Below the pieces are notes generated by a model. The model ran no database searches and was not told where the DNA came from. It was given only the letters and a program-made list of their open reading frames with translations. Made by a program: the position numbers and the translations under genes. A DNA stretch of 64,000 nucleotides from the NCBI GenBank assembly GCA_030697705.1, contig JAUYPE010000002.1:4312-68311 (forward strand), read 5' to 3'. Within the stretch, counting starts at the first letter, position 1. Each line of letters opens with the position of its first letter. This DNA is from a bacterium. Lineage in GTDB: Bacteria; Patescibacteriota; Minisyncoccia; Sungbacterales; HO2-52-23. Shown piece by piece: positions 23,507 to 52,550 of the stretch.

Positions 23507-26179
23507 TCAACTCTTCGCCGTTATTGCAACGCGGGAGGGAAGTCTTTTGACCTGTTTTGAGAATGAAACAACATCATCGCGGACATCAGCGAGAAGCGAT
23601 TCGCCGTCCACTATTTTATTTGCGATAAGCTCGCCCGCAAGCGGGTCAAGAATGTATTGCTGAATCGCCCGTTTGAGCGGCCGCGCACCGTATTGCGGGT
23701 CATACCCCTTCGTGCCGATGAATTTTTTGAGTTCTGACGTAAAGGCGATGGTAATATCCCGCGCAACTATGCGGCGGCGCACCATTTCAAGCTGAATATC
23801 CACGATGCGCTGAATTATCTCAACTCCCAAAGATGAGAAGATGATAATCTCATCCAGACGATTCAAAAATTCCGGACGGAAGTGACGCTCCAGCGCTTTA
23901 CGAATCTTGTCCCTCATGCTTCCTTCTTTCTCCTCATGCGTGTCCTCGCCAGAACCCGCAAAACCGAGCCGCCCCATTTCTTTGACATACTCGCCGCCAA
24001 TATTGGAGGTCATGATGATAATCGTGTTTTTGAAATTCACCACACGACCCTTGGCATCCGTGAGTCGGCCGTTATCAAGAATTTGCAAGAGAATGTTAAA
24101 CACCTCTGGATGAGCTTTTTCTATCTCGTCAAAAAGAATGACGGAGTACGGACGGTGGCGCACGAGTTCGGTCAGCTGACCACCCTCTTCATAACCGACA
24201 TAACCGGGCGGCGAGCCGACGAATTTGGAGGCGGTGTGACGCTCCATATATTCGCTCATATCCATGCGGATAAGCGCTTTTTCATCGCTGAACAAAAACC
24301 CGGCGAGCGTCTTGGCAAGCTCGGTCTTCCCCACACCCGTCGGTCCGAGAAACATAAACGACCCAATGGGGCGGTTTTCTTCACTGATACCTGCACGCGA
24401 TCGGCGCACCGCGTGGGCGATCTTGGTAATCGCTTCGTCCTGACCGATAACGCGAAGCCGCAGTTCGTCCTCCATGCGGATGAGGCGAGACATCTCGGTC
24501 TCCAGCATCTTGGTAACGGGAATGCCCGTCCAGCGCGCAACGACGGCGGCGACATCCTCCTCCCCCACCTCGCCGCGCGGCGAAGATCGCGTATGCTGAA
24601 GCGCGGTGAGCCGCTCCTCAACTTCTTTTAATTTTTTTTCGGTCTGGGGAATCTTGCCATAACGGTACTCGGCAACCGCGCCGAACTCTCCCGAGCGCTC
24701 GGCAATATCGGCTTCCTGCCGGAACGAATCAAGCTCTTTTTTGAGCGTACGCACTTCAACAAGTCGCTCCTTCTCCTCCTGCCATGCCGATTCTGACGCC
24801 GCAATGCCCGCCTGCAGTTCCGTAACATCCTTTTCCACTTTTTTGAGCCGTTCTTTGGCACGGCGGTCGGTTTCTTTTTTCAATGCCTCGCGTTCAATTT
24901 CAAGCTTCATAATGCGCCGACGCGTCTCGTCAAGCTCCTTGGGAATACTGTCCATTTCCAATCGTAACGAAGACGCCGCCTCATCAATCAAGTCCACGGC
25001 TTTGTCGGGCAAAAATCTATCGGCGATATAGCGCGCCGAGAGGTTCGCCGCCGCAATTAGTGCGCCATCGGTAATTTTAATCCCATGGTGCGCTTCGTAT
25101 TTCGGCTTGAGTCCGCGCAAAATCGCCACAGCATCCTCCACGCTCGGCTCGTCCACATACACCGGCTGGAATCGCCGCGCAAGCGCCGGATCGCGCTCAA
25201 TATGGCGCTGATATTCGCGCAGGGTGGTAGCACCGATAGCATGAAGCTCACCGCGCGCGAGCGCCGGTTTGAGCATATTTGCAGCATCAATCGCGCCCTC
25301 CGCCGCACCCGCACCAACAAGCGTGTGCAGTTCGTCTATGAAAATAACATACTTGCCCGCCCCGCGCTCTATTTCCCGCAGTATCGCCTTCAGCCGATCT
25401 TCAAACTCGCCACGGTATTTCGTCCCGGCGACAATCGCCGCCAGATCAATGGAAATGACTTCTTTTTCTTTTAATGTCTCGGGTACATCGCCTGCAACAA
25501 TCCGCTCGGCAAGCCCCTCAACGATGGCGGTCTTGCCCACGCCTGCCTCGCCTATGAGGACGGGATTGTTTTTGCTCCGGCGCGAGAGTACCTCCATGAC
25601 GCGGCGAATTTCGGCATCCCGCCCGATGACGGGGTCAAGTTTCTCCGCCCGCGCGAGGCGGGTGAGGTTCTTGGCGTATTTTTCCAAAACATTATACTTC
25701 GTTTCCGGTTCGGCATCGGTAATCCGCTGACCGCCGCGAAGTTCCGCCAGCGCACGCATGACAACTTCTTTATTTAACCCTTCACGCTCCAAAAGCTCTT
25801 TGGCACGCGTCGGTATCTCCAGGAGAGCGAGAAAAAGATGCTCCGTGGAGATGAATTCATCTTTGAGATGCGCCGCCTCGCGGTGTGCCTGCTCAATGGA
25901 CTTCGCCAAGTCCTGCGTGAGATACACCTGCCCCATCGGCGTAGAAACCGAAGCGCCGCGCGGCATCCCGTCAAGCGTTTCAAATAAGCGATCCATAAAC
26001 GCCGAGATGTCAATCTCCAATTTTTCCAAAATCGCGTCAACCGTCCCCTCCTCTTGCAAGGCAAGGGCGGCAAGCAAATGGAGCACATCAATCTGTTGAT
26101 GTGAGCGTTCAAGCGCCAAGTCATGCGCTTTTTTGAGCACCTCTTGAGCTTTTATCGTAAATTGTTGGAATGGCGGCAT
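23507..26179 (-). CDS. clpB: ATP-dependent chaperone ClpB
   Basis: Clp N-domain; two AAA+ modules ([30 protein letters not shown]); long coiled-coil M-domain between them; no ClpP-binding loop. Start at [15 protein letters not shown] (26179). Confidence 0.9.
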
Positions 26180-26231
26180 AGATATAAATAATAACGAGAG
26201 CAATGTTTAAGTTGTTTTCTTTTCTTTGTTT

Positions 26232-30110: not shown

Positions 30111-31394
30111 CTACTTCCTCTCATCAAGCTTCACCTTCACGCTTATTTCTTTACCGGCACGGAATACGGTCAAAGTAATTTCCTCACCAACGGCGTGGTT
30201 TTGGACAATAGCCGACAATGCGCGATTCGCATCAATCCGCTCGCCGGCAACGACAAGAATAATATCTCCTTCTTTCAAACCCGCACGGTCAGCCGGACCG
30301 CCGGGCACGACTGCAGGACCGTCGGTATTTTTACCAAGCAATGCGCCGTAATTCCTGCCGAGATTCAAGCTTTTGGCAAGGTCGTCGGTAACGGGCGCGT
30401 ACCGCACACCAAGGTAGGGATAGATTATCTTGCCGGTTTTGCGTACACTCTCAATATCACGTTTAACTTTATTGATGGGAATGGCAAAACCGATGCTCTG
30501 CGCGCCGCTCGCCACGGCGGTATTGATGGCAACCACCTCGCCGTAGACATTGATAAGCGGTCCGCCGGAGTTGCCGGGATTAATTGCCGCATCGGTCTGC
30601 ACCAATTCCTGCAATGCCTCTGGACCGTCCGCTCCGCCATTAGCAACGATGGAACGCTGAAGACCGGAGACGACGCCAACTGAAACGGTATTGCGGAATT
30701 CGCCGAGCGCATTACCGATGGCGATGACGGTCTGCCCGATTTTAATTGCTGAAGAATCGGCAAGTTTAAGAAACGGCAAGTTTGAGCCGGTTATCTGCAG
30801 AATCGCCAGATCCTGCACGGGATCGCGCGCCAAGACCTTCGCGGGCAATTTTTTGCCGTCGTTCGTGAGAACGGTAAAGTCCGCAGTTACATCGGCGACG
30901 ACATGTTTGTTCGTCACAATAAACCCATCGGCTGATACGATGAATCCACTTCCCGCAGAAACTTCTTGCCGTTTCGTCCCGTTTTGGCGAAGTTGCGGCA
31001 CTTGAAGGTTTGGATTCTCACCAAAAAATTGCTTAAAGAATGGGTCATCGCCGAATGGATCCACAAAATACCGCTCAATAATGGGAACATCTTTACTCGC
31101 CACTATACTGACTACGGCGGGTGAGGCGTTTTTGACCACCTGTACCACCAGTTCATCGGAGCGAACGATGCGCTCAATAGCCTCTTTTGTTTCGGGCGTT
31201 ACCGGCTTATCGCCCGACTTTTGCCGCGGGAAAAAATAAGATGGAATAATCGCCTCCTGGCTTACCATGGAACCGCGCCCGAAAACGCCAAGCACAAGCG
31301 TTGTGCCGATGAGCGAGGCGAGAAAACTTAACACGACGGCGAAAATAACCATCTGGCGCATGGTCGGCTGGGGTTGTTGTTGATGATCGGGCAT
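30111..31394 (-). CDS. htrA: HtrA/DegP-family serine protease with PDZ domain
   Basis: N-terminal TM; trypsin-like catalytic motifs (TNKHVV, DLAIL, GNSGGPLINVYGEVVAINTA); C-terminal PDZ. Confidence 0.85.
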   Translation of the reverse strand: MPDHQQQPQPTMRQMVIFAVVLSFLASLIGTTLVLGVFGRGSMVSQEAIIPSYFFPRQKSGDKPVTPETKEAIERIVRSDELVVQVVKNASPAVVSIVASKDVPIIERYFVDPFGDDPFFKQFFGENPNLQVPQLRQNGTKRQEVSAGSGFIVSADGFIVTNKHVVADVTADFTVLTNDGKKLPAKVLARDPVQDLAILQITGSNLPFLKLADSSAIKIGQTVIAIGNALGEFRNTVSVGVVSGLQRSIVANGGADGPEALQELVQTDAAINPGNSGGPLINVYGEVVAINTAVASGAQSIGFAIPINKVKRDIESVRKTGKIIYPYLGVRYAPVTDDLAKSLNLGRNYGALLGKNTDGPAVVPGGPADRAGLKEGDIILVVAGERIDANRALSAIVQNHAVGEEITLTVFRAGKEISVKVKLDERK

Positions 31395-31514: not shown

Positions 31515-31739
31515 TTACACCGCCTCAACACATCGCACCTCGGGCACGGCTTGTTTGAGCATCTCCTCAACTCCCGCTTTGAGCGTCAATTGCGAGAGCG
31601 GACAGCCGTGGCAAGTCCCAAGAAGTTGGACGAAAACCGTCCCCGTCCCCTCCTCAAACCGCACAAACTCAATATTCCCCAAATGCCTCGCCAGCATCGG
31701 CCTGATCTGCCCAAGCGCTTTTTCAATTTGTTCGATCAT
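31515..31739 (-). CDS. Nfu/NifU C-terminal-domain Fe-S cluster carrier
   Basis: 74 aa, GTCHGCPLSQLTLKAGVE CxxC motif typical of the Nfu domain. Confidence 0.7.
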   Translation of the reverse strand: MIEQIEKALGQIRPMLARHLGNIEFVRFEEGTGTVFVQLLGTCHGCPLSQLTLKAGVEEMLKQAVPEVRCVEAV

Positions 31740-32522: not shown

Positions 32523-33122
32523 TCACTCTCTAAACTGCTCAAGCTTCATCCGCTCAATCACGCCATTCACCTGCTCCCAGTTCAGATTCTTGAAAAATAC
32601 CTCAATGTACTCCTTGCGCGCCGTGGCAAAGTCCAGAAAATACGCGTGCTCGTACACATCCATAATAAAGAGTGCGACTGCTCCCCACACACCGCCCTGA
32701 TTGTGCGAGTCACAGAGGTAGTTTCGCAATGTGCCGTCTTCTAAATCAAAAGCGAGAATCGCCCACCCCCGCGCCGCAATACCGAGCGCCTTGAACTCTT
32801 CCATCCACTTTTCGTATGAACCAAAATCCTCCTCAATCCACTGTTTGATCATACCCGTCGGTTCGCTCCCGCCCGCTTTCATATTATCAAAATACCCCTC
32901 ATGGAGGCGGATGCCGTTTAACGCGAATGTCTCTTCGCGCTTGAGCTCGCCGAACTCCGAATAGGTCGCATTTGCCGCCGCGTGGTCAGTGACTTTTAAC
33001 TTCTCCTGTATCTCGTTCCATTTTTTGACATACCCCGCATAGAGCACATCGTGGTGCTCTTTTAACTGCTTCTCGGAAATCCCCTCCAACTGCGTATACG
33101 GCAATGGTTTTTGTCCTTTCAT
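32523..33122 (-). CDS. sodA: Fe/Mn superoxide dismutase
   Basis: KPLPYTQLEGISEKQLKEHHDVLYAGYV (N-terminal SOD signature) and DVYEHAYFLDF (C-terminal D-x-W/Y-E-H-A-Y-Y motif). Start MKGQKPLPY (33122) has an aagagg SD. Confidence 0.85.
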   Translation of the reverse strand: MKGQKPLPYTQLEGISEKQLKEHHDVLYAGYVKKWNEIQEKLKVTDHAAANATYSEFGELKREETFALNGIRLHEGYFDNMKAGGSEPTGMIKQWIEEDFGSYEKWMEEFKALGIAARGWAILAFDLEDGTLRNYLCDSHNQGGVWGAVALFIMDVYEHAYFLDFATARKEYIEVFFKNLNWEQVNGVIERMKLEQFRE

Positions 33123-33132
33123 AATCCTCTTC

Positions 33133-33242
33133 GTCATCCCGAACGGAGTGACTGCCAGCAGGCGTCCCGTGAGGGAGGGATCCCTCACAGCTTCAGTATA
33201 AACTGAATGTTAACGGGATTCCTCGCTCACGCTCGGAATGAC
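33133..33242. repeat. MITE-like palindromic repeat, copy D
   Basis: gtcatcccgaacggagtgactgccagcaggcgtcccgtgagggagg...ctcgctcacgctcggaatgac. Its first ~45 nt are near-identical to the reverse complement of copy E (45824-45929). Abuts the SOD ribosome-binding site. Confidence 0.75.
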
Positions 33243-33254
33243 ACGAAAAATATA

Positions 33255-33503
33255 TTACGGAAAAATCTGATTCCCTTCTTCGTCAAAAATCAAAATCGCC
33301 TGCGTGGGGCATGATTTCGCGGCGAGGAGAATCGTCTCGTCGTCCGCCCCGTGGTCATTATACACCACCGCCTTATTCTCGCCATCCAGCTCAAACACGC
33401 CGGGCGCCACGGCAATGCACGACGCTGCCCCAATGCAGAGATCGCGATCCACAACGATCTTCCCAATCTTTAAGGGCTTTGATTCTGGTTTTTGGTCATC
33501 CAT
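33255..33503 (-). CDS. ferredoxin (single [3Fe-4S]/[4Fe-4S] cluster type)
   Basis: 82 aa, CIGAASCIAV...KSCP Cys pattern. Confidence 0.7.
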   Translation of the reverse strand: MDDQKPESKPLKIGKIVVDRDLCIGAASCIAVAPGVFELDGENKAVVYNDHGADDETILLAAKSCPTQAILIFDEEGNQIFP

Positions 33504-33524: not shown

Positions 33525-33731
33525 TTAGCGAACAGATTTTAATACCCCTTCTTTGCGAGTATGCTTTTTTGAGAAACGCTTGCTTGCGTCAAGTATCTCA
33601 ACATACAAGGGAATCCCCTTGCTATCAAGATCAACCATAATGCCGGGAGCGATTTCGCGCGTTTCAGCCACCTTGCCCCTCTTAAAGGTCAGGTTTACGG
33701 CATCAGCAACAGGATCATAAGAATAGTTCAT
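33525..33731 (-). CDS. DUF2283-family protein (putative antitoxin partner)
   Basis: 68 aa MNYSYDPVADAVNLTF...GIMVDLDSKGIPLYVEILDAS, pattern of DUF2283; overlaps the upstream gene by 4 nt. Confidence 0.55.
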   Translation of the reverse strand: MNYSYDPVADAVNLTFKRGKVAETREIAPGIMVDLDSKGIPLYVEILDASKRFSKKHTRKEGVLKSVR

Positions 33732-33970
33732 GGAAGTGAGTTTGTAAAGTATTGGGTAATAACAACGATTCTATCATCTTCTCGCACAAAAATGACTTTG
33801 AGATATTTTTTACCAACCTTGTAAAACGCAAGAAACTTGTCTGATTCCATGATGAGCTTCTCCGGTGCGTCTATCGCACTATACACCATTTCCCGGGAGA
33901 TACTTCGTTGCCCTAATTTTTCTAATGCGTGCCGCGTAAAAATAATTTTCACCATGGAACGGAAAACCAA
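33728..33970 (-). CDS. DUF4258-family protein (putative toxin partner)
   Basis: 80 aa, IIFTRHALEKLGQRSISREMVYSAI...; DUF4258/DUF2283 are a known co-occurring pair. Confidence 0.5.
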   Translation of the reverse strand: MVFRSMVKIIFTRHALEKLGQRSISREMVYSAIDAPEKLIMESDKFLAFYKVGKKYLKVIFVREDDRIVVITQYFTNSLP

Positions 33971-33972
33971 TG

Positions 33973-35097
33973 CTACCCATAATACTTCTCCTTGTAGAAT
34001 CTGATCAACTGTTCAACTTCCGTGATAATTTCGGGCGAGCCGACGCCGACTTTGAGTTTTTTCTGCACCGTCTCCAGATCAACCGCGCCCTCAAGCACCG
34101 CCTCTTCTATGTCTTTGTCGGTAATGTTGAGTTTGACATCAATCACCTTCGCTCCCTCTATCATAACCCGTTCGTTCTGATTTGTCCTGCGAAAATAATC
34201 ATTCGCCGCTTTGCGAAACGCCTTGTCCGCCAAAACAGAACAGTGAATTTTTCTATTTGGTAAACCACCCAACCGATCCATAATGTGCTGGGGTTTTATT
34301 TTTAATGCTTCGCCCAAAGGCAGGCCGCCGTTTTCCGTTACCATAACCGAAAACATAGATGTCGCCGCAATCGCCGAACCGCAGCCAAAAGTTCTCCATT
34401 TCATCTCCGCGACTTTTTCGGTTTGCGGTTCAATTTTTAGCCACATCTTCATCATATCGCCGCAATTATGGACAAGAAACGCACTCGTCGCGTAGGTATG
34501 AGAGTCTGCAACTTCAAAATTATACAGTCGTCCACCTTCAAACGACATAGTCTCTACATGCTCAATCGGTAGCTCAATGTGGTGACGCTCCCCCACAACC
34601 GGATAAAGGCAAATATCTTTCGCCTTAAGATCTCCGGCATGCGCCCATGTAATAGGCGCATATGCGTTCGATTCAGACATATATTGCTTTGCATAGATGA
34701 GATGGTCGGGTGTCGCAATAATTTCCCCTTGGAAATTCTTGATTTTTATGAGTGAACCCGCTTGATACCTCACACGAAACGCCTTCTCAACAGGATAGTA
34801 TCCAGAATCATGACTCAATACTTTTTCACCAACTTGAATGTTGGGAATCTCTTTCAGACCAGCCCCCGTCAACACTAATGTTTCAGGCGCAAGGCAGGCG
34901 GGCGAGCCGACCATCCCCGTCGCGTCATAAGCATTTTCATCCGGCTCCTCAAGCATGAGATTGCGCGGATTGAAAAAATGCTCTTTGACGATATCCGAAT
35001 AGTACCACCGCTCGCCGGTGAATTGGTTGACCACATCCCCCGCCGCGAGCCCCCCCTCGGGAATCGGTTTCTTTTCTTTAACTTTTTGATTATCCAT
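33973..35097 (-). CDS. IscU/NifU-type Fe-S scaffold protein interrupted by a mini-intein
   Basis: N-extein ...YSDIVKEHFFNPRN...GMVGSPA | intein | CGDMMKMWLKIEP...FGCGSAIAATSMF...LPNRKIHCSVLADKAF (IscU signature with all three Cys); C-terminal BFD/NifU-like tail without Cys. Confidence 0.8.
   Translation of the reverse strand: MDNQKVKEKKPIPEGGLAAGDVVNQFTGERWYYSDIVKEHFFNPRNLMLEEPDENAYDATGMVGSPACLAPETLVLTGAGLKEIPNIQVGEKVLSHDSGYYPVEKAFRVRYQAGSLIKIKNFQGEIIATPDHLIYAKQYMSESNAYAPITWAHAGDLKAKDICLYPVVGERHHIELPIEHVETMSFEGGRLYNFEVADSHTYATSAFLVHNCGDMMKMWLKIEPQTEKVAEMKWRTFGCGSAIAATSMFSVMVTENGGLPLGEALKIKPQHIMDRLGGLPNRKIHCSVLADKAFRKAANDYFRRTNQNERVMIEGAKVIDVKLNITDKDIEEAVLEGAVDLETVQKKLKVGVGSPEIITEVEQLIRFYKEKYYG
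34465..34896 (-). other. mini-intein (144 aa, no homing-endonuclease domain) inserted at the GSPA^CGD active-site Cys of IscU
   Basis: Block A CLAPETLVLT, block B GEIIATPDHLIY (TxxH), block F/G YNFEVADSHTYATSAFLVHN followed by +1 Cys (CGDMM). Confidence 0.8.
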
Positions 35098-35120: not shown

Positions 35121-35790
35121 TCTGTCATTCCCGACTTAATCGAGAATCTATGATTCCTATCTTGCGTCGTAAACGATATTAGAACCATATTCCATCTGCA
35201 AATTGGATCATTTTGCCCATGAGGACACCGCAAAAATTACCCAAAATGGGGGTAAAAGTGTGAAGATACCTATAACTACAGAGGGCAAGAGGTATAAAAG
35301 GTTAAGGAGTAGCTTGAGCTTTTTTCCGGTTAGATCACCAATCCTAATTTTTGCCCCATCTTTATAGTGCTTCAAGTTTTCTTTGAACTCATTATCAATG
35401 GACTCCGATAGATAAATGTACAAAGCAAGAAAAACTATAGCAGGAATCATCACAAGGGTAGCATAGGGAGCGACTCTTAAAAGAATGGGGTGTGGATAAT
35501 TGAATGTTTTGTATAACTCATTAAGCGTCGGATAAAGATAAAGATGAACATACAAAAGGAGCAAGCTATCCGCAATTGCAATAAAAAGTGCTACATTTTT
35601 TATACGCTTTAGCACCGTCCACGCCTTCTCTTTTTCTATAGTACGATTCCTACGCTTCATAGCTATTAATACGGATAGGATAGGGACCAGAATTAACAGG
35701 CCATATATATAGGAAGTACTCATAGTTTTTATTTACGATAACTTTATAAAATCCTCTGCTTCTGGATTCCCGCTTTCGCGGGAATGACAG
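35121..35790. mobile_element. segment bounded by a perfect 12-bp inverted repeat (ctgtcattcccg / cgggaatgacag) carrying a low-GC passenger gene
   Basis: IR arms at 35122-35133 and 35779-35790 share the gtcattcc TIR core of the MITE family. The enclosed membrane-protein gene is much more AT-rich than flanking nifS/iscU. Confidence 0.5.
35208..35723 (-). CDS. hypothetical 4-TM membrane protein (passenger within IR-bounded segment)
   Basis: ORF with 4 hydrophobic segments; AT-rich codon usage. Confidence 0.45.
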   Translation of the reverse strand: MSTSYIYGLLILVPILSVLIAMKRRNRTIEKEKAWTVLKRIKNVALFIAIADSLLLLYVHLYLYPTLNELYKTFNYPHPILLRVAPYATLVMIPAIVFLALYIYLSESIDNEFKENLKHYKDGAKIRIGDLTGKKLKLLLNLLYLLPSVVIGIFTLLPPFWVIFAVSSWAK

Positions 35791-35800
35791 GATTAAGATT

Positions 35801-37075
35801 TCACTTATAATTCTTCCCGCCTACTTTTATTTTAGACCCTTGACCGGCAAACGCCTCCGGGTGGGACACATCCATCTGCCCCATTTCCAGCCGTACGGGA
35901 GAGATTTGGCGCAGTTTTTCTACAATACCAGGAAAAACTTCCATGACATAATCCAAATCCTCCTTCGTCGTACGGTGGCCGAGCGTAAAGCGGAGCGATC
36001 CGTGCGCGTACTCATACGGTCGTCCAATGGCGAGAATGACATGCGAAGGGTCGAGCGTCGTAGAGGTACACGCCGAACCGGTGGAGATGTAAATGCCCTT
36101 TGAATCCAGATACAAAATAACCGCCTCGCCTTCAATATCCAAAACCGACATATTCACATTATTAGGCAGACGCTTTATCGGATGACCGTTCAAGACAACT
36201 TTTGGAATCTCGGTTATGAGTCGGTGCGTTAAGTAATCGCGAAGTTCAATCAAACGCGCGTTTTCTTTTTCTTTCTCCGCATGCGCGAGTTCAAACGCTT
36301 TGGCAAAACCGATAATACCCGGCACATTTTCCGTCCCAGAACGGAGATTATTTTCCTGCCCGCCGCCGTGGATAATGGCCTTGAGCCGTGTCCCGCGCTT
36401 TACATAAAGACACCCGACACCTTTGGGACCGTACATTTTTGAGCCATTTATCGCGAGCAGATCAACGCCTAATTTTTCAACATCCATCTCAAGCGCGCCC
36501 GCCGCTTGGCACGCGTCGGTATGGAAATAAATCGGCGTCGCGTTTCCGGCAATTTTACGCTCCGCGCGGATATCTTTTATAACTTTGGCAATCTCCGGAA
36601 TCGGTTCAATGGTACCGATCTCGTTATTGGCATACATGATAGAAACAAGAATCGTATCCGGTTCTATCGCGCGGCACACCGCTTCCGGATCAACGAGTCC
36701 GTCCTCATCAACCGGCAGGTAGGTAGTGCGAAACCCTTCTTTTTGCAGTGCTTCACATGAGTGCAAAACGGCGTGATGCTCAATCGCGGAGGTGATAATA
36801 TGCCTCCCCTTATCTCCGTACATGTGGGCTATACCAAAAATTGCCAAATTAATCGCCTCCGTTCCTCCGCCGGTAAAAATCAACTCCTCCGACTTGCAAT
36901 GCAAAATGTGAGCGACCGTTTCGCGCGCCGCGTCTAGTGCCTCTTTTGCGCGCCTCCCCGGACGGTACAAAGACGAAGGATTGCCGAATTCACCTTCCCA
37001 AAACGGCTCCATCGCCGCTTTTACGCGCGAGTCAAGGTAGGTCGTCGCCGCATGATCTAAATACACTTCTCGCAT
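35801..37075 (-). CDS. cysteine desulfurase (NifS/IscS, class V aminotransferase)
   Basis: YLDHAATT, PLP-lysine region (INGSKMYGPKG), catalytic loop SGSACTS. Confidence 0.85.
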   Translation of the reverse strand: MREVYLDHAATTYLDSRVKAAMEPFWEGEFGNPSSLYRPGRRAKEALDAARETVAHILHCKSEELIFTGGGTEAINLAIFGIAHMYGDKGRHIITSAIEHHAVLHSCEALQKEGFRTTYLPVDEDGLVDPEAVCRAIEPDTILVSIMYANNEIGTIEPIPEIAKVIKDIRAERKIAGNATPIYFHTDACQAAGALEMDVEKLGVDLLAINGSKMYGPKGVGCLYVKRGTRLKAIIHGGGQENNLRSGTENVPGIIGFAKAFELAHAEKEKENARLIELRDYLTHRLITEIPKVVLNGHPIKRLPNNVNMSVLDIEGEAVILYLDSKGIYISTGSACTSTTLDPSHVILAIGRPYEYAHGSLRFTLGHRTTKEDLDYVMEVFPGIVEKLRQISPVRLEMGQMDVSHPEAFAGQGSKIKVGGKNYK

Positions 37076-49617: not shown

Positions 49618-50013
49618 ATGGCTATGGTCTTTCTCATCCGCGACTATCTCCGCTGGCACTATACCGCCGCCGTGCGTGAGCTTTTGGGCATTCTAGGAAA
49701 TCTCCTCTGGTTTTTCGCCCACCTTTTTTCTCTCCGTCTGCTCCTCGCTACTCTCTTTTCACCATTTTATAGAATCCATGAGGATTATTTCAGTGTCGCT
49801 GATATTGAAAAAACGCTTGCCAGCATCGCCGCAAATCTCGTTTCCCGCGTTGTCGGATTTTTATTGAGGATTATCGTCATCGCTCTCGGCATTATTACGG
49901 AAGGCGTACTCATTGTACTCATCTTGCCGATTTTGCTTGTCTGGATTTTTCTGCCCGCTATTATCATTGGTTCTTTGGGACTGGGCATATTCGGATTGTT
50001 GCATAATCTATGA
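49618..50013 (+). CDS. small hydrophobic membrane protein (co-transcribed with Clp-like ATPase)
   Basis: 131 aa, 3-4 TM; stop overlaps the start of the next gene (ATGA). Confidence 0.45.
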   Translation: MAMVFLIRDYLRWHYTAAVRELLGILGNLLWFFAHLFSLRLLLATLFSPFYRIHEDYFSVADIEKTLASIAANLVSRVVGFLLRIIVIALGIITEGVLIVLILPILLVWIFLPAIIIGSLGLGIFGLLHNL

Positions 50014-52550
50014 AAACGCCTTTTTTGGATTTCAAAAAAAATAAATTCTTCGGAGCGCTCGTTCTTGAGCGTTATTTCCCGCGGCAATGGCGACGGACGA
50101 TTAGAGTGCTCGCGGATATTGGTCTCGTCATTGCCGTGCTCCTCGTCGGCTATAGTGCTGTCGCTTTTGCTGTCGCCCATCAGAAAGGTGTGGCTGTGGG
50201 CGGGATGCCCCCCTTTAGTGAGCTTCCTCCTTACAATGAGCTTGTTGGCACGGGAATACTTATATTTTCTCTCGGCATACGCCTCTGTATTCTTTCCCTC
50301 AACGCCTATATACGCTCGCTGACGCTTGAGAAAAAGGGGGATCCCACGGACAAGAATCTAGCCGGACGGATGGATTATTATGTCGCGACACTCGCCTATA
50401 CCGCCTCTCGCACGCGTGGAGGGGCGAGCGTTGCAACTATAGCCAAAGCGCTTCCCCGCACTGCCATTGGTCGCGAGTTTCTCAAACGACTCGGCATGAA
50501 CGCTCAAGAATATGCCGCGCGAACCGACATAAAAAAATCCGAGCGGCCAGCGTATCTTGAACCGCAAAAAACTTTCGCTAAACCCCCACTCCTTGCCGAC
50601 ACACTTCCTGCAAACGGCGAGATCACATTCGTGCATTGTGCCGACATCCTCTGGGAGCATGACGAATATTTTCAAAAGCTCTGTTTCGCACGCGGACTCA
50701 CCAAGGACGATGTTACGGGTACGGCGGAATGGGCTTCGGGCGCGGCGGACGAGCAGGACCGTGCGGCGCGGTGGTGGCGGCGCGAACGGTTGGCGCGAAT
50801 TCCGGGATTTGCCAAAGGATGGGCGTATGGCAGGACCTATCTCTTAGACCGGTTTGGTACCGAGCTTACTACAAATAATAATATGGCCGCCGAACGCATC
50901 ACTGGCAGAGAGAGCGAGGTTGAAAAAATTGAAACGGCTCTGCTCAAACGATCGGGGGCGAATGCGCTCATCATCGGCGAGCCGGGAGCCGGAAGGCATG
51001 CCATTATCGCCGCGTTCGCGGAGCACATGCGCGAGGGGCGCGTCCATCCCGCGCTTGAGCATAAGCGCATTATTGAACTTCAGTTCTCAACCGTAACGGG
51101 CGCAGGAAAAACCAAAGGCGAAACGGAATCACTCCTCATCACACTCTTCAATGAAGCCGTGCGGGCGGGTAATATTATTCTCTTGATAAGCGACCTGCCC
51201 GCATTTGTATCCTCCCTTGGAGCACTCGGCATCGGCGCGGGTACGCTTCTGGCACCCTACCTAGAACATTCCGGTTTGCATCTTATCGCCACAGCAGACA
51301 CCGCGCGCTTCCGCCAAGTACTGGAAAGCGATGCAGGACTCATGAAATACTTTGAACGCGTAGAGCTCACCGAGCCGGACCCGCACCGCCTCCTCGCTAT
51401 TCTTGAGGACCACGCGCTCGTACTTGAAACAACATACCGCAACCGCATCATCATCACTTATTCCACGCTCATTAAAGCAGTTGACGGAGCAGTCAATCAT
51501 ATTGTCATCGGCGCACTTCCCCAGCGCGCGATTCAACTTCTGGAAGAGGCGACGGCACACGCGGTTGCGTCACATGCGCCTTTTCTCATACCTGAACACA
51601 TCAACGCCATTGTTTTACAAAAAACAAACATGCCTTCGGGCGCCATTGGCAAGGAAGAACAAGGCGCACTGCTTGATATGGAAGAACGACTCTGCACGCG
51701 CGTCATCGGACAAGACGAGGCAACGGCGGCGATTGCCGACACGATTCGCCGCGCGCGTACCGGCATCCGCAATCCAAGCCGCCCCATCGGCTCATTTCTT
51801 TTTCTCGGACCCACAGGTGTCGGAAAAACAGAAACGGCGAAGGCATTAGCCGCCGTGTATTTTGGCAACGAGGAGGCGATGCTACGCTTTGATATGAGCG
51901 AGTATGCGACCCAAGCGCAGGCCAAACAGCTCCTCGGCTCATTCGCCAAGGGCGAGCCGGGGTTACTCGCAAGCCGCATCCGCCGCGCGCCCTACGCCGT
52001 CCTGCTTTTGGACGAGTTTGAAAAATCGCACTCCGATGTGCGCAATATATTCCTGCAAATTCTTGATGAGGGCTTCTTTTCCGACCATTTGGGGAAGCAT
52101 GTCAATCTCCGCAACGCCATCATCATCGCTACCTCAAACGCCGGCGCGCTTGAGATTTTGGAGCTCGTTCAAAAAGGAGGCGATCCGGTAGCCGCGCGCG
52201 AGACGCTTATCGCCCATATTGAACAAAAAGGCATTTTCTCGCCGGAACTTTTGAATCGGTTTGATTCACTCGTGATCTTCCGCCCGCTTGATGAGAATGC
52301 GCGACGCGCCGTGGCAAAACTACTGCTGGAAAAATTGGTGGCGCGGCTTAAACGGCAAAATTATCTCCTCACAATTACGCCTGAACTCATTGATACGGTC
52401 GCAACGCGCGGCTACCATCCGGAGCTCGGTGCGCGCCCCATGCAAAGATTCATTCAAGACAAGATAGAAAAAACAATCGCCAACCGCATGATCAAAGGTG
52501 AGCTCACTTTCGGCACCCCCTTCTCCCTCTCCCCTGCCGATATCGCGTAA
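50010..52550 (+). CDS. membrane-anchored Clp-like AAA+ ATPase with degenerate D1 and intact D2
   Basis: N-terminal TMs; two Clp_N-like repeats. D1 Walker A GEPGAGRHAII (K->R, T->H) and Walker B ILLISDLP (DE->SD) are inactivated. D2 has [25 protein letters not shown], sensor-2 GARPMQR. No IGF/IGL ClpP loop and no long M-domain. Confidence 0.7.
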   Translation: MKTPFLDFKKNKFFGALVLERYFPRQWRRTIRVLADIGLVIAVLLVGYSAVAFAVAHQKGVAVGGMPPFSELPPYNELVGTGILIFSLGIRLCILSLNAYIRSLTLEKKGDPTDKNLAGRMDYYVATLAYTASRTRGGASVATIAKALPRTAIGREFLKRLGMNAQEYAARTDIKKSERPAYLEPQKTFAKPPLLADTLPANGEITFVHCADILWEHDEYFQKLCFARGLTKDDVTGTAEWASGAADEQDRAARWWRRERLARIPGFAKGWAYGRTYLLDRFGTELTTNNNMAAERITGRESEVEKIETALLKRSGANALIIGEPGAGRHAIIAAFAEHMREGRVHPALEHKRIIELQFSTVTGAGKTKGETESLLITLFNEAVRAGNIILLISDLPAFVSSLGALGIGAGTLLAPYLEHSGLHLIATADTARFRQVLESDAGLMKYFERVELTEPDPHRLLAILEDHALVLETTYRNRIIITYSTLIKAVDGAVNHIVIGALPQRAIQLLEEATAHAVASHAPFLIPEHINAIVLQKTNMPSGAIGKEEQGALLDMEERLCTRVIGQDEATAAIADTIRRARTGIRNPSRPIGSFLFLGPTGVGKTETAKALAAVYFGNEEAMLRFDMSEYATQAQAKQLLGSFAKGEPGLLASRIRRAPYAVLLLDEFEKSHSDVRNIFLQILDEGFFSDHLGKHVNLRNAIIIATSNAGALEILELVQKGGDPVAARETLIAHIEQKGIFSPELLNRFDSLVIFRPLDENARRAVAKLLLEKLVARLKRQNYLLTITPELIDTVATRGYHPELGARPMQRFIQDKIEKTIANRMIKGELTFGTPFSLSPADIA

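Follow-up and report, generated by a model that had tools for sequence, protein, structure and literature searches.

In Mycobacterium tuberculosis (Mtu), the SufB protein is interrupted by an intein of 359 amino acids (aa) that retains its endonuclease domain intact (PMC8891592). Here we describe a 144-aa mini-intein in a gene for a NifU/IscU-like iron-sulfur (Fe-S) cluster scaffold, located in a 64-kb window (the whole stretch of DNA that was analyzed, 64,000 nucleotides of contig JAUYPE010000002.1) from a bacterium of the candidate phyla radiation (CPR; Parcubacteria/Sungbacteria-like). The element is very probably a splicing-competent class 1 mini-intein, the relic of a LAGLIDADG homing intein at an invariant site, and no regulatory role is needed to account for it. 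The mycobacterial SufB intein appears to be its closest functional analogue. Both interrupt a protein that takes part in assembling Fe-S clusters and have the class 1 residues (Cys1, block-B His, His-Asn and Cys+1), and the SufB intein makes that machinery dependent on splicing (PMC8891592), as would be the case here. The hosts differ, being SufB of the SUF system in one case and the NifU/IscU scaffold of a NIF/ISC-like pair in the other, as do the sizes, with a nuclease-bearing SufB intein compared to a 144-aa mini-intein. Stress-sensitive splicing of the SufB intein has been studied by experiment. In the window, Cys+1 lines up with a residue that ligates the cluster in the scaffold.

Among solved structures, the closest by sequence is gp41-1 (30% identity, TM-score of 0.70 when normalized to query length), and a similar fold is found in the Mtu RecA mini-intein, Spl DnaX and Npu/Ssp DnaB (query-normalized TM-score, TMq, of 0.71 to 0.76). 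The solved mini-inteins share with our element the HINT horseshoe fold of ~130-150 residues and have no nuclease; their host genes are different and gp41-1 is naturally split. At position 4 of block F (F:4), where the NifU/IscU family has an invariant Asn, we take gp41-1 to have Asp. The two-part design of LAGLIDADG homing inteins such as PI-PkoII, PI-SceI/VMA1 and the archaeal V-ATPase inteins is shared by the full-length alleles at the NifU/IscU site (P0003 and L001-L015). Unlike these, the copy in the window has no nuclease domain and cannot home by itself; it appears to be a natural deletion product of a LAGLIDADG intein, with intact relatives persisting in sister lineages. For a regulatory reading, a possible analogy is the Pyrococcus abyssi MoaA intein, which holds the precursor of an oxygen-labile enzyme in a disulfide trap and in which a catalytic Cys sits in a redox-sensitive, metal-cluster-related protein (PMC10663303). 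There, a Cys of the N-extein pairs with Cys1, whereas the N-extein described here is free of Cys and a comparable trap would need Cys+1 or Cys96 of the intein.

A class 1 mini-intein at the cluster-ligand cysteine of the scaffold

The scaffold gene forms an uninterrupted frame of 374 codons on the minus strand (Table 1), and the plus-strand translation of the same interval is riddled with stops. The precursor is the same sequence as a database protein (P0001) labeled merely 'iron-sulfur cluster assembly scaffold protein', and homologues are labeled only 'scaffold protein' or 'hypothetical'. Its junctions read ...YDATGMVGSPA / CLAPETLVLT...SAFLVHN / CGDMMKMWL.... The initial annotation had described a 144-aa insert between GMVGSPA and CGDMMKMWL; its coordinates proved exact, with the strand, which had been left unstated, being minus. 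Blocks A (CLAPETLVLT), B (ATPDHLIY) and G (AFLVHN followed by Cys) likewise read as they had been quoted.

When the 144 residues are excised in silico, the resulting 230-aa product matches PF01592 (NifU_N) in a single stretch (profile positions 2-125 of 127, E = 6e-36, 123.8 bits, cutoff 22), whereas the match is broken into two in the unspliced precursor. This bears out the earlier assignment of the host to the NifU/IscU type. The spliced sequence also aligns end to end with the solved IscU/NifU structures 4eb5 (from A. fulgidus) and 7c8m, with the CGD, GCGSA and HCS motifs in register, and the structures 2z7e and human ISCU are found in the same table of structure matches. In this alignment the +1 Cys (precursor Cys212) falls on Cys33 of the A. 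fulgidus IscU (numbering counted off the printed alignment), within the G-x-P-x-C-G-D motif, and we take Cys33 to be the equivalent of Cys37 in Escherichia coli IscU. The residue proposed as the +1 nucleophile is thus also the Cys that provides the scaffold with its first Fe-S ligand, as the initial annotation had claimed. Further ligand residues lie in the C-extein (Cys239 and His285-Cys286); the precursor has Cys at positions 68, 163, 212, 239 and 286. On the N-terminal side, the GSPA motif (G64, S65, P66 and A67) is invariant in the 16 sequences of an alignment of intein-bearing and intein-free alleles (A1).

The host is best called NifU/IscU-like, and is neither a strict IscU nor a strict NifU, because its scores fall below the NCBIfam equivalog cutoffs (TIGR01999, 105.3 compared to 192.4; TIGR02000, 129.6 compared to 273.3), its BFD-like region has no Cys and the Nfu domain is encoded separately. 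NifU proper also requires a central [2Fe-2S] domain with four Cys and a C-terminal Nfu domain, which here is encoded by a gene of its own (31515-31739) and not by the scaffold gene. Approximately the last 50 residues of the scaffold (33973-34130, minus strand) give a weak match to a BFD-like [2Fe-2S] domain (E = 0.005) that contains no cysteine and therefore cannot hold a cluster in the usual manner. The C-terminal region is strongly conserved in CPR homologues (…DKDIEEAVLEGA…LIRFYKEKYYG).

Within the insert, the class 1 set is complete (Cys1, Thr62-x-x-His65, His133, His143-Asn144 and Cys+1), and C1, H65, N126, H143, N144 and C+1 are invariant in all 67 aligned family members. The sole internal cysteine of the intein, Cys96, varies among relatives in alignment A1. 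A profile search of the 144-aa insert revealed no LAGLIDADG match, whereas relatives carry ~236 extra residues with PF14528 at the junction of blocks B and F, in agreement with the earlier statement that the endonuclease domain is absent.

Searched on its own, the insert matched the Pfam models PT-HINT (PF07591; E = 8.7e-8, 32.9 bits, cutoff 27.7), Hint_2, Hint and Intein_splicing, with PT-HINT being the only Pfam HINT model over its cutoff. It also exceeded the cutoff of TIGR01443 (intein_Cterm; 18.8 bits, cutoff 15.6), and the N-terminal splicing region profile TIGR01445 aligned to intein residues 1-68, including block B. An AlphaFold2 model built from an alignment of 13 family members was all-beta with 14 strands (predicted local distance difference test, pLDDT, of 92.7; predicted TM-score of 0.85). 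Model confidence drops to a pLDDT of 86 at the nuclease scar, and residues 71-80, in a loop shortened by ~7-8 residues, have a mean pLDDT of 74. When this model was compared to the PDB using Foldseek, the top 50 matches were all HINT structures (46 intein, two hedgehog and two bacterial intein-like (BIL) entries with four BIL2 chains, plus one other BIL), all with a probability of 1.00 and TMq between 0.59 and 0.79. The leading matches were the hedgehog HINT, gp41-1, RecA and DnaX mini-inteins (E = 5e-9 to 1e-7), and the DnaB and RadA inteins were also among the best solved structures. The insert is a class 1 mini-intein by every sequence and structure criterion that could be checked here, with the curated profiles passed in part. 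The refuting outcome named in the initial annotation, an insert with no significant match to Hint-domain profiles, did not occur: the insert matches HINT and intein profiles, and its predicted fold is that of a HINT domain.

Distribution of the insertion site among homologues

We examined the 120 best database matches to the precursor. An intein was found at the identical site in 69 of these, including 64 of ~380 aa and five mini-inteins (141-164 aa), while the remaining 51 were intein-free, as had been predicted of related genomes. Sharing of one site by so many homologues is far beyond chance. The long alleles are listed with LAGLIDADG_3 (PF14528) in precomputed Pfam assignments, and in the family profile the nuclease portion resembles the endonucleases of PI-PkoII, PI-SceI and the V-ATPase inteins (E = 8e-11 to 1e-6). 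Four intein-free alleles in alignment A1 have GSPA joined straight to CGD. A non-intein insertion at this site, which would have told against the initial annotation, was sought among the homologues and none was found; every insertion was an intein. Named hosts include Candidatus Sungbacteria, Giovannonibacteria, Yanofskybacteria and the 'Parcubacteria group'.

A scan of GTDB with the intein profile (one genome per species) returned 16 loci, 15 of which were NifU/IscU genes with an intein at G-x-P-x / C...HN / CGD; at one locus (L011), masked bases hide the N-terminal side and the C-terminal junction alone is visible. Bacterial carriers comprised CPR bacteria and one metagenome-assembled genome (MAG) labeled Gammaproteobacteria. 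Archaeal carriers were from the Woesearchaeota, Nanoarchaeota, Methanosarcinales and Methanomassiliicoccaceae, together with one unclassified archaeon. The sixteenth locus, from a Nitrososphaera MAG (L016:3101-4216), has a related LAGLIDADG intein (…SAFLVHN / CKQVL…) in a different host protein, so this intein lineage is not confined to NifU/IscU. At the DNA level, 17 alleles were compared and 15 have kept the GSPA / CGD flank, the other two having GNPV (L014) and GNPK (L015); the intein-free site of L020 reads …GGAAGCCCGGCG / TGCGGAGACATGATG….

At E ≤ 0.001, a wider search of 1.84 billion cluster representatives identified 1044 sequences related to the mini-intein, spread over many host proteins. 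The best 150 of these contributed seven further IscU proteins, all of the short form and each with an intein at the same cysteine (P0122, P0151, P0161, P0162, P0164, P0223 and P0224); two of the inteins are mini-inteins (144 and 164 aa). Short-form IscU, also represented by L014 and L015, is of the archaeal/clostridial type, with GNPV / C…HN / CGD and no C-terminal tail. Because inteins occur in this form too, divergent IscU subfamilies share the site as a recurrent target.

Two of the mini-inteins at the GSPA / CGD site, in P0047 (residues 64-204) and P0052 (residues 59-201), are 141-143 aa long and match Pfam Intein_splicing (E = 7e-9). Their alignment to the main family is nearly absent (hhalign E = 0.015, with 26% identity over the N-terminal part), and we rejected them as derivatives of the type found in the window; the pattern suggests either that the site was invaded independently or that divergence has been extreme. 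Two other alleles look broken: in a woesearchaeal copy (L005:3797-4231) the reading frame ends within the intein, and in a Methanomassiliicoccaceae MAG (L014:3863-5230) the C-extein frame stops ~30 residues past CGD. Either decay of the alleles or errors in assembly may explain these cases.

Nuclease loss, divergence and selection

The closest extein to that of the window is P0003 (95% identity over core columns), which contains a full-length intein and is encoded on the contig designated L017. Relative to P0003, the intein in the window lacks the ~236-residue nuclease domain between ...LYPVVG and ERHH..., plus ~7-8 loop residues. The same two deletions and the same length of 144 aa are found in P0002, the intein of which is only 58% identical to ours despite an extein identity of 90%; the mini form is therefore old, and it has kept all catalytic residues through a long divergence. 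A second, independent loss is seen in P0004, whose 164-aa mini-intein differs in its deletion boundaries and shares 89% identity with the full-length intein of P0005. By this comparison, the nuclease was lost at least twice.

The proportions of nonsynonymous (pN) and synonymous (pS) differences between the window and L017 were 0.28 and 0.74 for the splicing domain and 0.055 and 0.51 for the extein. We relied on this contrast instead of dN/dS, since dS by the Nei-Gojobori method was undefined or above 1.8 in comparisons with L017 and L019. The intein is under purifying selection yet evolving far faster than its host. GC content at third codon positions (GC3) is 0.41 in the intein and 0.58 in the extein, and this difference, together with the higher pS of the intein, hints at separate intein and extein histories. 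For 20 of the 120 homologues, the nearest extein neighbor has the other intein state. A selfish homing element accounts better than a regulatory role for the patchiness, the fast evolution and the lower GC3.

Proposed splicing pathway and alternative explanations

Applying the canonical class 1 pathway to this precursor, the 374-aa translation product would first undergo an N-S acyl shift of Cys68 (Cys1) at the Ala67-Cys68 bond, aided by Thr129 and His132 of block B. Cys212 (+1) would then attack the thioester in a trans-thioesterification, Asn211 would cyclize with the aid of His210, and a final S-N shift would yield the 230-aa scaffold with its native GSPACGD motif and a free 144-aa intein. 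The first ligand Cys is parted by the insert from the preceding strand, which splits the ligand loop; the unspliced precursor should therefore not build clusters, and scaffold activity would depend on splicing. The claim of such a dependence in the initial annotation is accordingly reasonable.

The active-site position itself is most simply explained by homing onto invariant DNA combined with the need for a +1 nucleophile: the invariant GSPA / CGD sequence would offer a stable homing target and also supplies the Cys. An in-frame deletion would then have removed the nuclease from a homing intein common at this NifU/IscU site. At such an invariant active-site position an imprecise loss would be lethal to the gene, so that only exact removal, by splicing or by conversion to the intein-free allele, would leave it working. 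Taken together, the history of this copy bears the marks expected of a homing-intein cycle, which runs from invasion through decay of the nuclease to a lasting splicing-competent mini-intein.

Several points weigh against this reading. Splicing itself is deduced from the sequence, and both the status of this protein as sole scaffold and the essentiality of NifU lie beyond the 64-kb view; the gene is probably indispensable. Two curated intein profiles fall short of their cutoffs (TIGR01445, 21.8 compared to 24.5 bits, E = 2.8e-4; PF14890, 18.9 compared to 35.8 bits), and the top Pfam match is PT-HINT. Residue F:4 is Asn126, invariant in 67 of 67 members, in place of the commoner Asp. Synonymous sites are saturated, which makes dN/dS values rough. 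Finally, an intein that had taken on a useful function would also be expected to persist for long without a nuclease.

The leading alternative, raised in the initial annotation as a plausible redox- or metal-responsive control point, is conditional splicing, which we consider unlikely: the intein would now serve as a post-translational switch gated by redox state or metals, such that the Fe-S scaffold matures only under reducing or metal-appropriate conditions. Splicing would be stalled by a disulfide between Cys1 and Cys+1, or by Zn, Fe or Cu bound at Cys68, His132 and Cys212 with Cys239 and His285-Cys286. In its favor, the two nucleophiles are both Cys, and the one at +1 ligates metal and has the other ligands nearby in the sequence. 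Redox genes also surround the locus: those for superoxide dismutase (SOD), ferredoxin and Nfu lie in the window, and the syntenic L017 has one for a peroxiredoxin. The mini-intein has also outlasted its nuclease across ~40% sequence divergence with its catalytic residues kept. There is precedent of a kind: the Mtu SufB intein is reportedly a sensor of oxidative and nitrosative stress, a finding that others attribute to work by Topilina in 2015. Redox or metal control has been reported for further inteins, with the P. abyssi MoaA intein forming a disulfide trap and the Prp8 and DnaB inteins being inhibited by Zn or Cu (reviewed in PMC10663303). Against a switch, close relatives with 85-88% extein identity are intein-free and the distribution is patchy. 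Identities of 58-60% for the intein compared to 89-92% for the extein, and the difference in GC3, also count against it, as do the lack of any extra conserved Cys (Cys96 being variable) and the Cys-free N-extein. Moreover, the majority of alleles keep the homing nuclease, a hallmark of selfish elements.

Still less probable, in our assessment, is a dead insertion, in which the HINT domain no longer splices, this NifU copy is pseudogene-like and another system, encoded elsewhere in the genome, makes Fe-S clusters. The missing nuclease, the shortened and less confidently modeled loop, the Asn at F:4 and the broken appearance of some relatives (the frame stop within the L005 intein and the truncated C-extein of L014) could be taken as signs of decay. 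However, the 374-codon frame is intact, all catalytic residues are retained, purifying selection on the extein is strong and constraint on the intein is clear. The F:4 Asn is family-wide, including alleles that bear the nuclease, and is no private lesion, and the NifS-NifU neighborhood is conserved.

A non-intein HINT domain of the BIL or pretoxin-HINT type, cleaving the protein without ligation, is scarcely credible: PT-HINT is the top Pfam match and alone exceeds its cutoff among the Pfam HINT models, and the leading fold matches include HINT structures from BIL and hedgehog proteins, but the insert lies in frame within a conserved housekeeping domain whose flanks are continuous in intein-free orthologues, its His-Asn and Cys+1 junction is invariant, the LAGLIDADG nuclease of its relatives matches PI-PkoII and PI-SceI, and cutting without ligation would wreck the ligand loop of the scaffold. 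HINT modules of that type usually cleave, and they are typical of the boundaries between domains in proteins that are variable, secreted or toxins; we rejected the identification given a conserved housekeeping host, an insertion inside a single domain and homing nucleases in relatives.

Gene neighborhood and other features of the window

The intein-bearing gene belongs to a compact Fe-S/redox neighborhood on the minus strand, comprising NifS, NifU, ferredoxin, Fe/Mn SOD, Nfu and HtrA (Table 1). The same set is found in L017, which is syntenic with the window and has the full-length intein, and the NifS-NifU gene order is the same in L017, L019 and L020. No further inteins were found in the ten longest open reading frames (ORFs) of the window.

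Table 1 Features of the scaffold gene, its intein and the neighboring genes (window positions)
Feature	Position	Strand	Description	Evidence
HtrA	30111-31394	-		
Small Nfu-type protein	31515-31739	-	74 aa, NifU C-terminal domain, CxxC (CHGCP motif)	PF01106, E = 1.4e-24
Fe/Mn SOD	32523-33188	-		
Ferredoxin	33255-33503	-		
NifU/IscU-like scaffold precursor gene	33973-35097	-	374 aa, stop included, intein-interrupted	ORF; NifU_N, E = 2.7e-31 in two stretches
C-extein	33973-34464	-	Residues 212-374	CGD, second and third ligand Cys, C-terminal BFD-like domain
Mini-intein	34465-34896	-	144 aa, class 1, HINT splicing domain only, precursor residues 68-211	Profiles, AlphaFold2 model, Foldseek, absence from homologues
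Intein block G and Cys+1	34462-34482	-	AFLVHN followed by precursor Cys212	H143, N144 and C+1 in 67/67; TIGR01443 above cutoff
Intein block F	34492-34530	-	RLYNFEVADSHTY	R123 64/67, L124 67/67, N126 67/67, E128 66/67, H133 66/67
Scar of absent LAGLIDADG endonuclease domain	34585-34602	-	…LYPVVG / ERHH…	Alignments to P0003/L017; PF14528 there
Intein block B	34693-34713	-	TPDHLIY, TxxH with Thr62 and His65	T62 65/67, H65 67/67
Intein block A	34867-34896	-	CLAPETLVLT, Cys1 nucleophile = precursor Cys68	Cys1 in 67/67
N-extein	34897-35097	-	Residues 1-67, end ...GMVGSPA	Alignment A1 to intein-free alleles
NifS/IscS-type cysteine desulfurase	35801-37075	-	Upstream partner of scaffold	PF00266 Aminotran_5, E = 5e-76

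Between the NifU and ferredoxin genes lies a DUF4258/DUF2283 gene pair (33525-33970, minus strand), presumably toxin-antitoxin-like, which also occurs on the P0002 contig and was not found at the syntenic loci L017, L019 and L020. The space between NifS and NifU holds a hydrophobic ORF of 171 aa with no Pfam match (35208-35723, minus strand); this gap is empty in L017 and contains different unannotated ORFs in L019 and L020. Elsewhere, the window encodes two ClpB-like AAA+ chaperones (23507-26203, minus strand; 50010-52550, plus strand), with matches to Clp_N and the first AAA domain undetected at E ≤ 1e-5 in the second.

Significance

The element in the window is one member of a large intein family, the 'NifU/IscU Cys-site' allele, that we did not find described in the literature. 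The initial annotation knew of no documented IscU intein, and our full-text search of open-access papers agrees, having returned no description of an intein in IscU or NifU; the main text of the Novikova 2015 survey of intein hosts names neither protein. An intein at an active-site nucleophile is of an ordinary kind, while the host protein and the spread across domains are apparently unreported.

Intein-aware annotation would fix protein lengths and domain calls in many MAGs, and compact 144-aa mini-inteins of the Cys/Cys type are candidate tools for protein engineering. The understanding of inteins or of Fe-S assembly is unchanged unless a regulatory role is demonstrated. Were the switch to prove true, it would tie the making of Fe-S clusters to redox or iron status in CPR and DPANN cells, which have minimal genomes and few transcriptional regulators. 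The available alleles are a convenient system for testing whether redox state or metals affect an intein that uses a metal ligand as its +1 nucleophile. With these sequences, NifU/IscU, a core Fe-S scaffold, joins the list of intein host proteins, and the full-length, mini and empty alleles found in near-identical exteins form a natural series for the homing cycle, from invasion through nuclease loss to persistence.

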